NCBI GenBank assembly: GCA_964478355.1
Contig: CAYZIF010000003.1
Coordinates: 1-31,784, forward strand
Source of the DNA: an uncultured Candidatus Saccharibacteria bacterium
Lineage (GTDB): Bacteria; Patescibacteriota; Minisyncoccia; 2-02-FULL-40-12; GWA2-44-9
DNA length: 31,784 bases
Direction: 5' to 3'
Shown: positions 1,743 through 6,986 of the stretch, piece by piece
How positions within the stretch are numbered: position 1 is the stretch's first letter
Layout: each line of letters opens with the position of its first letter
The notes under the pieces: generated by a model
The model's input: the letters and a program-made list of their open reading frames with translations, nothing else
Told to the model about the DNA's origin: nothing
The model's database searches: none
Position numbers and translations under genes: made by a program

Positions 1743-3533
1743 ATGAAATTACCCCAGCGCGTAGAGCTGATTAGTATCGCAGTCGTAGCAATCGCTTCCG
1801 TATTGGCATTCGTAAGCTCAATCAATGATGCCCCTATAGTTGATGAGGTGCCACACATTGGTGCTGGATACTCCTATCTTGCCAAGCAGGATATGCGCCT
1901 GAACCCCGAGCATCCTCCGCTCATCAAAGACTTGGCGGGTATAGCGCTCATGCCGCTGCTGGGATTCTCAAATCCCGCATTTGCAACCAAGCCATGGACC
2001 ACTGACGTGAATGGCCAGTGGCAATTCGGGCGCTCGATTATCTTTGACTCGGCGGCAAATCCCGACCTCATCAAGCTCATCTCGCGTGTTCCGATGCTGT
2101 TGGTGTTTATATTTGCCTGTTGGCTTATGTGGCGCTGGGCCCGTGAGCGCTACGGAGACACTTCTGCGCTCATCGCTACGATTCTATTTGCATTCTCACC
2201 CACGATACTCGCTCATGGAAGATTCGTTACCACTGACATGGGAGCGGCGGCTGGTATTCTTGCGGCAACGTATTGTTTCATTGCGCTCCTGCGCAAACCA
2301 ACCATGCGCGCATTTCTTTTTGCCGCACTGGCACTAGGCTTGGCATTGCTGGCAAAATTCAACACCGTACTCCTCGGGCCATTCTTTATTCTCGTAGCCA
2401 TTCTGTATGGGCTCGATGGTGCGTGGAACAGTAAGAAGGCATGGCTTCGCGCTGGTCGTATGTTTGTTCTCACAGCACTAGTTGGCATCACCGCATTCGT
2501 GGGTGTCGTTGTGCCCTTCTATGCTTTTCATACCTACAACTATCCTCCTGCTCGCCAGCTCGCTGATACCCAAGAGATTCTCGGAAGCTACCCGCCCTCT
2601 ATCCTCAAGACCCTCGTGCTCTGGTCAGCCGACAAGCCTGTCGCACGCGCCGCAGGACAATGGGCGCTCGGCCTGGCCATGGTGCAACAGCGCAGTGCCG
2701 GCGGCAACACCATTTTCTACATGGGTCGCGTCGTTACCGCGGGTGGCCCTGGATATTTCCCGACGGTGTACTTCCTCAAAGAACCTCTGGCGTGGTGGAT
2801 CCTCTTCTCGATGGCGCTGACTGCACTGGCATTTCATCACCGACGTCGCCCCAAAGAACACAAGCGCGGACACTTCTTCACCGACAATTTCGAAGAGTGG
2901 GTGTGGGTGCTGTGGCTCATCATCTATTGGACTATCAGCATACAGAGCACTCTCAACATCGGCGTACGTCATCTCTTGCCTATTTATCCGTTCACCATCT
3001 TGCTGGTGTCCGGACGTATTGGTGTGCTTATCGAATGGCTTCGCGCTCACGACCGTGCGCGACTCCAGTGGTTCTCACTTGCTATCGCGGGCCTCTTGGG
3101 CTGGTACACCTTCGAATCGGTTCGCGTCTGGCCTTCGTACTTGAGCTACTTCAATCAAATCGCAGGAGGACCTTCCGGAGGTCATCGGTTCGTCGCCGAT
3201 AGCAATCTCGACTGGGGCCAAGACATCAAGCGTCTGGGGCAGTGGCTTGAGCGCAATAACATTCAACGACTTTCCATTGATTACTTTGGCTGGTCAGATC
3301 CAACGCACTACCTCGGTCCTCGCTATGTCTACACCACGGGAAGCTACTGGAAGGATGCGCAAGATTTCATAAAAAATAATAAATCCGATGGGTGGATTGC
3401 CATCTCCGCTACATTCTTCCAAGAGGCTACGAATCGCGCCGAACCCGGCAAGAGTACCTATCGCTGGTTGATGGACTACGAACCAACAATTGTTATTGGA
3501 AACTCTATCTTCGTCTGGCACGTCACAAAATAA
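1743..3533 (+). CDS. GT-C fold membrane glycosyltransferase (PMT/ArnT-like)
   Basis: 596 aa polytopic protein with IVDEVPH, LNPEHPPLIK, HGRFVTTD, LLAKF, IGVRHLLP and DSNLDWGQD motifs; starts 2 nt after the upstream stop. Confidence 0.8.
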   Translation: MKLPQRVELISIAVVAIASVLAFVSSINDAPIVDEVPHIGAGYSYLAKQDMRLNPEHPPLIKDLAGIALMPLLGFSNPAFATKPWTTDVNGQWQFGRSIIFDSAANPDLIKLISRVPMLLVFIFACWLMWRWARERYGDTSALIATILFAFSPTILAHGRFVTTDMGAAAGILAATYCFIALLRKPTMRAFLFAALALGLALLAKFNTVLLGPFFILVAILYGLDGAWNSKKAWLRAGRMFVLTALVGITAFVGVVVPFYAFHTYNYPPARQLADTQEILGSYPPSILKTLVLWSADKPVARAAGQWALGLAMVQQRSAGGNTIFYMGRVVTAGGPGYFPTVYFLKEPLAWWILFSMALTALAFHHRRRPKEHKRGHFFTDNFEEWVWVLWLIIYWTISIQSTLNIGVRHLLPIYPFTILLVSGRIGVLIEWLRAHDRARLQWFSLAIAGLLGWYTFESVRVWPSYLSYFNQIAGGPSGGHRFVADSNLDWGQDIKRLGQWLERNNIQRLSIDYFGWSDPTHYLGPRYVYTTGSYWKDAQDFIKNNKSDGWIAISATFFQEATNRAEPGKSTYRWLMDYEPTIVIGNSIFVWHVTK

Positions 3534-3557
3534 AACCGCCCGCAGTGTGCGGACGGT
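3532..3557 (-). terminator. Intrinsic terminator for the convergent minus-strand ORF
   Basis: Minus strand ACCGTCCGCA-CAC-TGCGGGCGGT (10 bp, one G-U) followed by TTT then A. Confidence 0.6.
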
Positions 3558-3564
3558 ACGAGTG

Positions 3565-4095
3565 CTATTCAACGAACGTGACAATCGGACAGACTCTCTC
3601 TTTGGCTGCACGAAGTCGTCCGCTGACGAGCTGATAGATGGAGCTCTTTTTGAGACTTTGGCTCATGTGGTCATTATCAGTAGCACTTGAGAAAAGAAGG
3701 ACTCCTACAAGAATCATCCCAGGAATCACTGCAAGCTTGAATATTTCCAGCAGGAGTGGCCATTTGGCCCACAGCACCCAAGCAACAATCAGCCACCACG
3801 GTTGCAACCGCCACCCTCGCAATGTTGGCCATTTTTTGATGGGAACGAAGCTTTTTCCATAGCTTTCGGATTCTTGAGTAGTTGCGATTCTGTGACTTAA
3901 CAGGAGCCCCACCGCAGAAGCGAGGGTTAAGAGAACCACGCCGACTATCACTCCAATCGGCCATTTAATAAGGAGGCCGAACAGAAACCGCCAGAAAAGT
4001 GGACAAATTGATGTATGAGTTGGAACTCGTGGACCCGTGCCGAGCGGGTTATCATAGGCGACATACGCCACAAAACTATTTTTCTTGAGTTGCAT
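3565..4095 (-). CDS. Hypothetical Trp-rich membrane protein (about 176 aa)
   Basis: Two long hydrophobic regions. The likely start is ATG 4095, preceded by GGAGG at 6 nt; the ORF track starts at TTG 4101. It has its own promoter and terminator. Confidence 0.75.
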   Translation of the reverse strand: MQLKKNSFVAYVAYDNPLGTGPRVPTHTSICPLFWRFLFGLLIKWPIGVIVGVVLLTLASAVGLLLSHRIATTQESESYGKSFVPIKKWPTLRGWRLQPWWLIVAWVLWAKWPLLLEIFKLAVIPGMILVGVLLFSSATDNDHMSQSLKKSSIYQLVSGRLRAAKERVCPIVTFVE

Positions 4096-4124
4096 TGGCA
4101 ACCTCCGCTGTAAAAGAGTATATT

Positions 4125-4153
4125 TTTATACCACAGTTTATAGTATCATGCAA
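4125..4153 (-). promoter_or_regulatory. sigma70-type promoter of the 3565-4095 ORF
   Basis: Minus strand TTGCAT (4153-4148), 17 nt, TATAAA (4130-4125), with TG at the extended -10 position. Confidence 0.6.
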
Positions 4154-4160
4154 TATCTTC

Positions 4161-4193
4161 ACAAAATAAAAGACCTAGAGGTTATCTAGGTCT
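4161..4193 (-). terminator. Strong intrinsic terminator ending the putative ncRNA
   Basis: Perfect 9 bp stem AGACCTAGA-TAACC-TCTAGGTCT followed by TTTATTTTG on the minus strand. Confidence 0.8.
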
Positions 4194-4832
4194 AAGGGTC
4201 CGGAGAGGTGCAAGGAAACGAGAATTCCCTACCCCCTCTCCAGATACGACATGCTACCATCAATCAGTGTGCTTCCCGATGCGGCCGAGGGGAGCGATTC
4301 GCGGTCACACAGTCTCTCGCAATAACCGTGTGCAGGATCCAAGATTCCCACTGGGATTTTGTGTCGCCGTGGCGCCGACACCTCATTGTTCAGCTTGAAC
4401 CCTTACACAAACTCGTACGTACTGCGTATGAACTTATGTAAGGGCCCGGGCGTAGTCGCTGTGACTTGTCGATCGTCACTGGCGGCCTCGCCCGGGCATG
4501 GCATTCTACTTGGGTTTGTTCGGTTAATTTATGTCTGCGCGGTTACCCGATGTGTCGGGTTCCAGAGCTTCCCACGTGTGTGGGTTTGGATCGCCGCAGC
4601 GCGATTGTCCGAGCCTGAGCCCTGGAATCAGCCAATAATCGAGAAACTACCGCTATGCTTTCGCTGCGAGAGCTGTCCTGTCTTCTTCTAGCGCCCCAAA
4701 TGAGTTATTTCATGGGCTGAATGCTGACTTCGATGTCACGGGCCTAGGCCCGAAACGAGAGGATTATTGGCTAATTCCAAGGCTTTTTGCAAAACCCTGG
4801 GTATAGAAAGAACATAAGGTATTGAGCCTTAT
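4165..4832 (-). ncRNA. Putative large (about 670 nt) structured ncRNA of unassigned class
   Basis: Bounded by a near-consensus promoter and a terminator, with no minus-strand ORF of 60 aa or more in the track. It has a 23 bp helix (4762-4784 with 4618-4640), many hairpins, and GNRA loops (GAAA, GCGA) on the minus strand. Confidence 0.7.
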
Positions 4833-4838
4833 AGGAGA

Positions 4839-4867
4839 AGTATAGCAAATTGGTGCTCATTTGTCAA
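4839..4867 (-). promoter_or_regulatory. Near-consensus sigma70 promoter driving the putative ncRNA
   Basis: TTGACA (4867-4862), 17 nt spacer ending TGC, TATACT (4844-4839); predicted start A at about 4832. Confidence 0.8.
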
Positions 4868-4875
4868 TACCTCGC

Positions 4876-5670
4876 CTATTTGTAGTATACCCGCCCAGGA
4901 GTTCGTGCATCGATATATTGGGGTTTCCACGTACTATCGATGGCTCTATCGGCAATAAGGACCGCGAGCGTATCGAGCTGGTCGCCAATATCACCGAGCG
5001 CATCGAGAATCACGTCATACCCCGTACTCACGCGTATCCAGAGATCACCGGGGGCGGTATTGGGAAGCGTCACCATAATAGGACGAAGCCCCATATCCGG
5101 CAGTGCGCCCACTACTGTGATGAGACTGGCAAAAATCCTATCATCCCACGAATCAGCAGGGCGCTCATCTTGCACATAGAGTAAGAGTGGCCCTTTTGAA
5201 GGCACCGCACTTCCCCAGCGAGCGCCTGAAACGTCAAAGTACTGGCACTCGGATTGGAAACACCACGTTCCCATAGGTACCCGCTCACGAGCTGCCACGG
5301 TAAGCGTGTGGGGATAATTTTTGGCGACGTGGACTCCCTCAATATTCTTGAATGTAGTGCGCAATAACTGAGCAACGCCTTCTTCGTTGAGAAGAAGCAT
5401 GTTGCGTGCAGGACGCAGAAAGCCGAGGGTCTTTTTCCCGAGCACATCTTCAACCGCCAAACGAAGTTGGGTATTTACGTTTTCGGATGCGCCACTCACC
5501 TGAATATCGGTTACCGCAAAAGACGCTGACGCAAATAAAAGCCATGTCAGACCTCCTAACACTATGGCAACGACGCTGGTATACCCGACAGCACGAGCGA
5601 TAGATGCACGCTGATGCGCGCGAGCAATAGGGTCAGGCCCCGGTGTTCGATTACGGATAGTGACCGACAT
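4876..5670 (-). CDS. ftsQ: Cell division protein FtsQ/DivIB-like
   Basis: Short cytoplasmic N-terminus, one TM, a POTRA-like segment (FAVTDIQVSG...KNYPHTLTVAARER) and the C-terminal YIDARTPGRVYYK signature. Confidence 0.7.
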   Translation of the reverse strand: MSVTIRNRTPGPDPIARAHQRASIARAVGYTSVVAIVLGGLTWLLFASASFAVTDIQVSGASENVNTQLRLAVEDVLGKKTLGFLRPARNMLLLNEEGVAQLLRTTFKNIEGVHVAKNYPHTLTVAARERVPMGTWCFQSECQYFDVSGARWGSAVPSKGPLLLYVQDERPADSWDDRIFASLITVVGALPDMGLRPIMVTLPNTAPGDLWIRVSTGYDVILDALGDIGDQLDTLAVLIADRAIDSTWKPQYIDARTPGRVYYK

Positions 5671-5675
5671 TGGCG

Positions 5676-6986
5676 TTAACCCTCAATCACATCAACACCG
5701 CCCATGTAGGGACGAAGAGCGTCAGGGACCTCAACAGATCCATCTTCATTCTGATAGTTCTCAAGAATTGCAATGATGATGCGCCCCAATGCAAACGCGG
5801 TACCGTTGAGCATGTGCGTGAACGCTGTAGACTTCTCGCCCGTGCGGTATCGTGCCTTAAGAGCACGCGCCTGATAATCAGTGGTGTTACTGGTCGAACT
5901 GGTTTCTCGATACTCATTCTGGCCTGGCATCCATGTTTCGATATCAAACGTACTCGCAGATGCCGCACCAATATCTCCTGTACTCAATCGCATCACACGA
6001 TAGTGCAAACCCAGCCCCTGCATGAGCGCCTCTTCAGCGGCAAGGATGAGACGGTGCTCGTGGGGGGAATTTTCAGGTGTTGTGACCGTAAACATTTCGA
6101 GCTTATCGAATTGATGCACGCGAAGAATGCCTCGTGTGTCTTTACCTGCGGCGCCTGATTCTCGTCGGAAGCAGGTACTGTATCCCACGTAGCGAAGTGG
6201 TAATTCTTCGGGAGCAGTAATGGTGTCGTAGTGCATGGGTCCAATGGACTGCTCTGACGTTCCCACGAGGTACAATCCATCTTTGTCCAACCAATAGCTC
6301 TCATCGCCTCCTGGAGGCACTCCAGCGCGTTCAGAGAAGCCCATCGCCTTCATCATCTCGGGCTTAATCATAACGGGAGGAATAACTGCCTTAAACGGAG
6401 TTGGCGCAATAGGAAGATTTGCTTTTTCAATCAACTCGGCGACAAACCCCTTACTGGTGAGCCGCGAGATTGCATATTGCACCAGCGCGAATTGCAAGAG
6501 CGCGGCACCGCCTTTGAGGTAGCCGAAACGACTTCCGCTCACAACGGCAGCCATTTCAGTATCGATAAGGCCTCGTGCTGGAGCAAAATCCATGTAGTGT
6601 CTAGGTGTGAAATCAAATTTCCGAGGTTCGCCAAAGCGAGCAACCTCTACATTCTGCTCGTCGCTGGCACCTACGGGCGTGTCTTCGAGGGGAATGTTAG
6701 GCAACGGCGCAACAGCATCGAGTACGCGCTGACCCAGTTCATCGACATGCGTGCGAAGCACCGCAATCTTTTCTTTGAGCGCTTTAAGCTCGCTGATACG
6801 TTCGGGCTCCATTGGACCTTTGCTGGCACTGTTTTGCTGCGCCTGTGCTTCTTCGAGCTCTTGGAGTGCTGCGCGATGCTCTTGATCGAGCTTTACGATA
6901 GCTTCCACATCAACCTCAAGCCCTCGCGACTTCATGGCTCGAGCTACTGCGTCTGCATCGGTTCGAAAAAGTTTGATATCGAGCAT
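5676..6986 (-). CDS. serS: Serine--tRNA ligase
   Basis: MLDIKLFR start, N-terminal coiled coil, GTSEQ, motif 2 FRRESGAAGKDTRGILRVHQFDK, motif 3 HMLNGTAFALGR. Confidence 0.97.
   Translation of the reverse strand: MLDIKLFRTDADAVARAMKSRGLEVDVEAIVKLDQEHRAALQELEEAQAQQNSASKGPMEPERISELKALKEKIAVLRTHVDELGQRVLDAVAPLPNIPLEDTPVGASDEQNVEVARFGEPRKFDFTPRHYMDFAPARGLIDTEMAAVVSGSRFGYLKGGAALLQFALVQYAISRLTSKGFVAELIEKANLPIAPTPFKAVIPPVMIKPEMMKAMGFSERAGVPPGGDESYWLDKDGLYLVGTSEQSIGPMHYDTITAPEELPLRYVGYSTCFRRESGAAGKDTRGILRVHQFDKLEMFTVTTPENSPHEHRLILAAEEALMQGLGLHYRVMRLSTGDIGAASASTFDIETWMPGQNEYRETSSTSNTTDYQARALKARYRTGEKSTAFTHMLNGTAFALGRIIIAILENYQNEDGSVEVPDALRPYMGGVDVIEG

Follow-up and report, generated by a model that had tools for sequence, protein, structure and literature searches.

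A structured non-coding RNA gene of Candidatus Yanofskybacteria with a conserved 5' core and a variable hairpin tail

What kind of gene occupies the roughly 670 nucleotides (nt) between positions 4832 and 4165 on the minus strand of contig CAYZIF010000003.1 (assembly GCA_964478355.1), and how much of it is kept by evolution? The window analysed here, 31,784 nt in length, is contig 3 of a 680-kb genome (93 contigs, 87% complete). An earlier interpretation made from the letters of the DNA (the sequence-only reading) had proposed that the segment encodes a large structured non-coding RNA (ncRNA). We regard it as securely established that this is a new, lineage-restricted structured ncRNA gene lying outside any Rfam family. 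Our reading as a whole, in which an uncatalogued ncRNA gene of Candidatus Yanofskybacteria specifies a conserved, trans-acting, protein-bound core followed by an exchangeable hairpin tail, is one to which we give slightly better than even credence. The earlier interpretation is right in kind and overstated in size and in likeness to ornate bacterial RNAs.

The gene is bounded by two transcription signals:

4867-4839, minus strand: promoter, with the -35 element TTGACA at 4867-4862, a 17-nt spacer and the extended -10 element TGcTATACT at 4847-4839.
4193-4161, minus strand: intrinsic terminator identified by pattern scan, with a 9-bp stem (4193-4171), a 5-nt loop and a U-tract.

The promoter agrees with the consensus at 11 of 12 positions, has the TG of an extended -10 element and was the top-ranked promoter-like site in a pattern scan of 3400-5800; transcription would start at about 4832 on the minus strand. 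Promoters of the same TTGACA / TGnTATA(C/A)T type, with 10-12 of 12 matches, stand at a constant distance from the conserved 5' part of the RNA (the core, described below) in 24 of 26 homologous loci, and in these 24 loci the spacer is 16-18 nt, mostly 17. Intrinsic terminators close every homologue, at variable distance from the core, and each copy, judged by these signals, appears to be an independent transcription unit. The proposal of a stand-alone minus-strand ncRNA gene with its own promoter and terminator was thereby borne out, as was the statement that no open reading frame (ORF) lies behind the promoter, there being none longer than 50 amino acids on the sense strand from 4875 to 4102. 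Coding potential was also considered for the 3' part of the RNA, where peptide-like strings recur in relatives; these are spread over several frames, which indicates conservation of nucleotides rather than a gene.

The claim that the RNA is conserved as one ornate molecule of about 670 nt did not hold. When the locus was compared with its relatives by BLAST, only the first ~265 nt of the query, comprising the promoter and the 5' domain, were matched, at 90-93% identity in three genomes of the same genus and at 68-75% in another four, and alignment of the whole gap gave a nearly invariant 5' segment of ~220 nt followed by barely alignable sequence. On the evidence of these alignments the conserved, and presumably functional, unit is the 5' ~220 nt (4832-4614), about one third of the transcript. 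Among close relatives the core remains 90-94% identical, compared with only 54-62% amino acid identity for the neighbouring FtsQ-like protein. Its elements are:

4832-4814, minus strand: P1, a 5' hairpin (AUAAGG/CCUUAU), genus-specific, with 5 pairs of which 3 show compensatory changes and 100% are paired.
4813-4801, minus strand: conserved single strand, GUUCUUUCUAUAC, with the family consensus AGUUCUUUACAUA taken from alignments.
4784-4762, minus strand: 5' strand of the P2 stalk, holding an invariant AGCCA.
4755-4736, minus strand: P3 hairpin (CGGGCC/GGCCCG), with 7 pairs, 3 of them compensatory.
4728-4680, minus strand: P4 hairpin, with GUC/GAC, an internal loop, UUC/GAA and GCCC/GGGC, and an apical loop that contains UGAAAU.
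4678-4643, minus strand: P5 hairpin, variable, capped here by a GNRA tetraloop (GAAA at 4662-4659).
4640-4618, minus strand: 3' strand of the P2 stalk, holding an invariant UUGGCU, its last 8 nt being segment C (4625-4618).

The P2 stalk thus closes a junction of three hairpins, P3, P4 and P5, and this architecture is carried by covariation. Across 11 distinct genus-type sequences, 94.9% of the pair cells of the core are standard pairs and 16 of the 48 pairs are changed on both sides; none of 500 column shuffles matched the observed values, and pairing was 34-52% when partners were slid by 1-3 columns. Eight of the 24 pairs of P2 show compensatory changes in the same 11 sequences. The 23-bp helix joining 4784-4762 to 4640-4618, which had been singled out from the sequence, is present and is kept in all 29 homologues examined as a stalk of 22-29 bp (median 25) with few unpaired bases, its AGCCA/UGGCU being invariant across the family. 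The orientation argued from this helix also stands, as its U-G pairs are compatible with the minus strand only; the U-G pairs in P2 and P3 together identify the minus strand as that of the RNA. In thermodynamic folding, 4165-4832 reaches -263.8 kcal/mol on the minus strand (z = -5.9 versus dinucleotide shuffles) and -255.3 kcal/mol on the plus strand (z = -4.8). The minimum free energy (MFE) fold reproduces most of the other stems that had been proposed, namely 4752-4739, the GAAA tetraloop near 4660, 4584/4571, 4560/4545, 4497/4444, 4444/4400, 4381/4361 and 4241/4202, and several of them preserve pairing in relatives by means of compensatory changes.

P4 is the most conserved of the hairpins, with invariant outer pairs and two inner pairs that show compensatory changes in 5 of the 11 sequences. 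Its internal loop consists of AGCA (4725-4722) opposite GAA (4685-4683), and is AGUA/GAA in three relatives; AGYA/GAA is what we take to be the sarcin-ricin/loop-E consensus. The hairpin that corresponds to P4 in other genera has a bulge of 4 nt on its 3' side and the conserved loop CCAGGCAUUCAAGUAAGAUA, the wider family motif, and the stems of these equivalents covary in the alignments inspected. The RNA of other genera begins just before the next element after P1, and the apparent "P1" found there is the -10 box. At the position of P3 an inserted hairpin is found in one metagenomic relative. P3 is perfectly palindromic in several species, its loop being the self-complementary CUAG or CAUG, a property that is not conserved in the relatives G009 and G003; a palindromic P3 could in principle mediate dimerisation, as far as its sequence goes. 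Pairing of the conserved 5' single strand with the P4 loop or with the 3' strand is possible on paper; its one side is invariant and hence gives no covariation.

To establish how widely the core is distributed, two models were used: R1, a covariance model built from alignment A1 for the 5' domain, and R2, a broader sequence-only model built from alignment A5. With R1, 27 of the 62 genomes searched in the window's GTDB family had the core, each as a single copy. R2 found a single-copy core in 49 of 61 genomes of that family, Candidatus Yanofskybacteria, representing 20 of the 23 genera sampled. Outside the family, R2 had no match in two sister families (17 genomes) and two marginal ones in a third; of these, one proved to be a true homologue truncated at the end of its contig. 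Two genomes of the window's own genus had no match, and in one of them the contig ends 70 nt past the upstream gene. A strict two-block pattern searched in ~185,000 species genomes returned 11 metagenome-assembled genomes (MAGs) of Yanofskybacteria/Patescibacteria and one chance site in Vibrio, and a genus-type pattern applied to a metagenome collection recovered three new sequences. The homologous loci belong to MAGs labelled Candidatus Yanofskybacteria, Paceibacterota or Patescibacteria. As far as our searches go, the RNA family appears to be restricted to Candidatus Yanofskybacteria, ultra-small bacteria of the class Paceibacteria in the Candidate Phyla Radiation (CPR).

The neighbourhood of the gene does not tie it to any one protein-coding gene. 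Two ORFs flank it on its own strand:

5670-4876, minus strand: upstream neighbour, a 264-residue FtsQ/DivIB-like protein with a weak match to POTRA_1 (FtsQ-type, E = 0.002).
4101-3565, minus strand: ORF of 176/178 residues without a Pfam match, situated past the terminator of the RNA and before the convergent PMT gene.

A C-terminal motif, YIDLRxxGRVYYK, is common to the upstream ORF of many loci, and a functional link between the RNA and the 264-residue protein was considered and rejected. The upstream gene differs between genera, being MurB, DnaJ or others elsewhere, so that adjacency to the FtsQ-like gene is a matter of local synteny only; a search for related loci that was queried with the FtsQ-like protein gave no matches. 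Downstream, most loci have a convergent PMT_2 glycosyltransferase gene, which argues that the RNA has no target in cis and no fixed protein-gene partner. Inspection showed that the 176/178-residue ORF has its own Shine-Dalgarno sequence, GGAGG, as well as a box resembling an extended -10 element, and most same-genus relatives have no gene at this position. A riboswitch or cis-leader was rejected on these grounds, there being in most loci no gene on the same strand to be controlled, and the ORF after the terminator in the window carrying its own -10 box and Shine-Dalgarno sequence. As for targets in trans, 9-11-mers complementary to five conserved segments occur in the genome at about chance frequency, and the lack of an excess argues against a long-seed antisense mechanism.

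The novelty of the RNA, proposed from the sequence together with a check against Rfam, was upheld when that check was run. In cmscan searches of Rfam 15 at gathering scores no family matched in the whole window or in 20 homologous loci, and at E<=10 the interval 4050-4950 gave four chance-level matches, all to unrelated families. It had also been stated that hallmarks of RNase P RNA, transfer-messenger RNA (tmRNA) and signal recognition particle (SRP) RNA are missing, and we concur in each case. The genome's RNase P RNA lies on contig 13 (117.6 bits) and its tmRNA on contig 7 (105.5 bits). The models of SRP RNA (RF00169 and RF01854, with the helix 8 motif) matched neither the window's genome nor any of five near-complete relatives. 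In line with this, none of the 81 genomes searched in the class had the M domain of SRP54 (PF02978), PF00448 gave no true match when 61 genomes of the order were searched, and a check for motifs in the window's own genome found no GTPase of the Ffh/FtsY type; absence of the SRP pathway has already been reported for Parcubacteria (Nelson and Stegen, 2015, PMC4508563). 5S rRNA was considered on account of the junction and the loop-E-like motif, and was set aside because a canonical 5S lies elsewhere in four relatives. Canonical 6S RNA was rejected as well: RF00013 had no match in the window's genome at E<=1, and the core, a stalk that closes a three-hairpin junction, lacks the rod shape and central bubble of 6S. 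Rod-shaped 6S-like RNAs do occur elsewhere in the class: of 101 other Paceibacteria genomes, 6 carry one that matches RF00013 (24-52 bits), measures 140-170 nt and has a strong promoter. Four such loci (L093-L096) were inspected, and in three of them the ORF upstream is Ndk-like (motif ...KTLV..KPDG). Among the papers of the library that was searched, none dealt with ncRNAs of the Yanofskybacteria lineage.

Between the conserved single strand and the stalk lies a region that can pair in two ways:

4800-4791, minus strand: segment A.
4787-4777, minus strand: segment B, which forms with A a 10-bp hairpin incompatible with the 8 outermost bp of the stalk.

Two partners are open to segment B: A, in a duplex of 10 bp, or segment C (4625-4618), in what are the outermost 8 bp of P2. 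In 21 sequences the A:B pairing is worth -14.6 kcal/mol with the cognate and -10.1 kcal/mol with non-cognate partners, and the B:C pairing -20.6 versus -13.3 kcal/mol. Both pairings are thus stabler between cognate partners, from which it follows that A, B and C covary together. We suppose that the A-B hairpin would form transiently, early in transcription, and that C, made later, would take B from A and complete the outer stalk. A similar event is known in the folding of E. coli SRP RNA, in which a 5' hairpin is displaced co-transcriptionally once the 3' strand has been made. The RNA described here resembles E. coli SRP RNA in having a long terminal helix and a 5' hairpin one arm of which is captured by a distal 3' segment, and differs from it in matching no SRP model and in belonging to a lineage without Ffh/FtsY. 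In six relatives (G005, G009, G003, G010, G008 and G006) the loop of the A-B hairpin is CACCUCC, the same sequence as at the anti-Shine-Dalgarno end of 16S rRNA; the window's own A-B loop has GCA in its place.

The remainder of the transcript, which we refer to as the tail, is of a different nature:

4617-4194, minus strand: variable tail of GC-rich hairpin modules, ~450 nt of 3' sequence.
4584-4571, minus strand: hairpin module.
4560-4545, minus strand: hairpin module.
4497-4444, minus strand: hairpin module Ha.
4444-4400, minus strand: hairpin module Hb.
4381-4361, minus strand: hairpin module Hc.
4243-4200, minus strand: hairpin module Hd.

Among relatives the length of the tail ranges from about 0 to 600 nt and that of the whole RNA from ~205 to ~800 nt. 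The distance from the promoter to the first strong terminator is ~205 nt in two nearly tail-less relatives of the same genus (G008 and G006), in which the terminator follows directly upon the core and the convergent gene starts ~35 nt further on; it is 222-425 nt in several other relatives, lies between 410 and 670 nt for most members of the genus and reaches at most ~800 nt elsewhere. Its GC content in the window is 0.55, compared with 0.505 for the genome and 0.47 for the core. When folded without their terminators, 9 of 10 tails were more stable than dinucleotide shuffles (z from -1.6 to -7.5), that of the window having z = -4.8. Ha to Hd recur in the same order, with different sequences, in G011, G001 and/or G004, and compensatory changes affect 4 pairs in the Hb stem and 6 of the 16 pairs in Hd (four sequences each).

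The pace of change in the tail is best seen between G001 and G004, of which the adjacent genes are 93.9% identical without gaps and the cores 97% identical, compared with ~79% identity and ~100 gap positions between the tails, whole hairpins having been gained or lost between them. On such comparisons of sequence the tail appears to evolve faster than the adjacent gene, through gain and loss of GC-rich hairpin modules, while staying structured. A repeat or mobile element was considered as its source and excluded, as the tail is single in the genome and no copies of it were found elsewhere there. We conclude that the tail is a set of lineage-specific, exchangeable hairpins the specific sequence of which is unconstrained. 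Its generic structure probably stabilises the 3' end and/or shields the convergent gene from read-through by the strong promoter. As a separate observation, the RNA gene stands at or near contig ends in many MAGs (G002:C40 end, G091:C6 end, G009:C5:135, G069:C41:5 and G073:C75), and strain-level variation of the tail may be breaking metagenome assemblies at this gene.

The reading that we favour brings these findings together as follows. A near-consensus extended -10 sigma-70 promoter would drive a transcript of ~670 nt that ends at the intrinsic terminator. Its core would act in trans as a protein-bound housekeeping or regulatory RNA, rather than as a cis-leader or a long-seed antisense RNA, and the long P2 duplex is a candidate site for RNase III or for a protein with a double-stranded RNA-binding domain (dsRBD). 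The conservation of the core relative to the neighbouring protein, the invariant loops, the loop-E-type module and the near-universal, single-copy occurrence behind a consensus promoter all fit a trans-acting RNA that is recognised by protein. Several points weigh against this reading. The protein that would bind the core is hypothetical, and the modes of action suggested for it, as part of a ribonucleoprotein (RNP), as an RNase III substrate or through strand displacement, are predictions from its anatomy. In searches of public RNA runs with examination of their reads, no run demonstrably held the ncRNA sequence, the yield being one 104-nt, DNA-like contig of a relative's core, so that the ends, abundance and processing of the transcript are predictions. 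The structure of the tail is based on few sequences, four per hairpin, and the tail of G010 is no more structured than its shuffles (z = +0.3). Finally, in four genera a self-contained hairpin abutting P2 replaces the A-B hairpin, which means that competition between A-B and B-C is not essential to the family.

A bolder form of the same proposal would see here a new class of housekeeping RNP RNA, present throughout the lineage, in which a core of ~150-200 nt on a 25-bp stalk binds a CPR-specific protein and a hypervariable tail of hairpin modules under diversifying selection, for instance from host or phage interplay, varies among co-occurring strains. We consider this unlikely, though worth keeping in view; if true, diversification of the tail between strains could explain the frequent assembly breaks at the RNA gene.

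The alternative that survives best overlaps in part with the reading we favour. According to it the transcript is a precursor, the 25-bp stalk being an RNase III processing site from which a mature RNA of ~150 nt (the inner stalk with P3-P5) is released, and the leader and tail being discarded spacers. The near-perfect stalk, of 22-29 bp in every one of the 29 sequences, is far longer than a closing helix requires, the genome encodes RNase III (a 235-residue ORF on contig 18, recognised by its signature motif NERLEFLGDA), and the two together give a near-perfect intramolecular duplex of at least 20 bp alongside the enzyme that could cut it. The resemblance is to the stalks of rRNA precursors, which are RNase III substrates formed as duplexes of at least 22 bp by sequences flanking a structured RNA; unlike in those, the enclosed RNA here is no rRNA (no Rfam rRNA model matched) and cleavage is only putative. 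It would also suit this model that tails vary freely in length and content, down to ~0 nt, and that, once the stalk had been cut, A-B pairing could take the place of its outer part. On the other hand, the invariance of AGCCA/UGGCU within the stalk suggests that it is recognised in the mature RNA, and tails are more structured than expected of a discarded spacer. We therefore regard a mere precursor as unlikely, to about the same degree as the bolder form above.

More doubtful is the idea, raised by the sequence-only reading, that all ~670 nt belong to a single large, ornate RNA comparable to OLE, ROOL and GOLLD, in which the tail is an integral domain and which might form multimers. The size of the RNA, the strong folding of both its halves, and the order and compensatory changes of Ha-Hd, kept in four species, speak for it. 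There is in addition a general similarity to OLE (RF01071), ROOL (RF03087), GOLLD (RF01998) and the raiA motif, these being, like the RNA described here, stand-alone genes of several hundred nucleotides, restricted to certain lineages, with many covarying helices and with GNRA and loop-E-type modules. GOLLD, too, has one half conserved and the other half variable. However, the likeness to OLE, ROOL and GOLLD turned out to be one of size, as none of their models matched even at E<=10; no match was obtained with the models of raiA and HEARO either, and an architecture conserved over the whole length was likewise not found. Unlike in those RNAs only ~220 nt are conserved here, the tail is variable and altogether lacking in some same-genus relatives, and the hallmark is a near-perfect stalk of 22-29 bp. 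Modules, moreover, are swapped between near-identical genomes. The helix that had been suggested to close the ends of such a molecule (4798-4792 with 4201-4195) appears only in the MFE fold of the window's sequence and is without comparative support, inspection by eye having revealed no counterpart in G011, G001 or G004; it would use segment A, for which two other, conserved pairings compete, A-B among them.

We hold it improbable, and a shade more so than the preceding alternative, that the core is a two-state switch or ligand sensor, toggled between A-B and B-C pairing by a signal. That A, B and C covary together in most genera, that the highly conserved junction loops could form a pocket and that short forms have a terminator directly after the core would all be expected of a switch, but four genera have an independent hairpin instead of A-B and most loci lack a downstream gene on the same strand that could be controlled. 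In addition, the hairpin, of 10 bp, is far less stable than the stalk of 23-25 bp, so that a rearrangement in one direction during transcription is the likelier course, and we do not read A-B as an obligatory two-state sensor.

Placed slightly lower still is the view that the core alone is functional and that the tail is non-functional run-on sequence in a convergent gap, extending up to the first available terminator. The tail does change at least as fast as the adjacent gene and has many indels, its length varies from 0 to 600 nt and one tail is unstructured. Set against this are the 9 of 10 tails that fold better than shuffles, with z down to -7.5, the GC enrichment over the genome (0.55 versus 0.505), the maintenance of hairpins by compensatory changes and the fact that 450 nt of junk would be unusual for a streamlined 0.7-Mb genome; we judge this view quite improbable. 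Least probable of all is a functional analogue of 6S RNA (RF00013), an abundant RNA sequestering the RNA polymerase holoenzyme, for although the RNA resembles 6S in being near-universal in its family, single-copy and of housekeeping type, with a very strong promoter, a ~200-nt core and a long terminal helix, and no RF00013-type 6S was found in the window's genome or in two other sampled genomes of the family, a stalk with a hairpin junction is not a rod, the genuine rod-shaped 6S RNAs of other Paceibacteria (140-170 nt) look quite different and the conserved loop sequences are atypical of 6S.

What distinguishes this gene is its unusual layout, an extremely conserved core on a 25-bp stalk joined to a folded tail that changes faster than the neighbouring genes. 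The CPR makes up a large part of bacterial diversity, and almost nothing is known of its non-coding RNAs. Here one candidate phylum-level group, Yanofskybacteria, is found to have a well-supported new RNA family, with covarying pairs and a conserved consensus promoter, that is near-universal in the group and present in single copy, and it is kept in streamlined genomes of ~0.7 Mb, in which 0.2-0.8 kb of non-coding DNA should be costly to retain.

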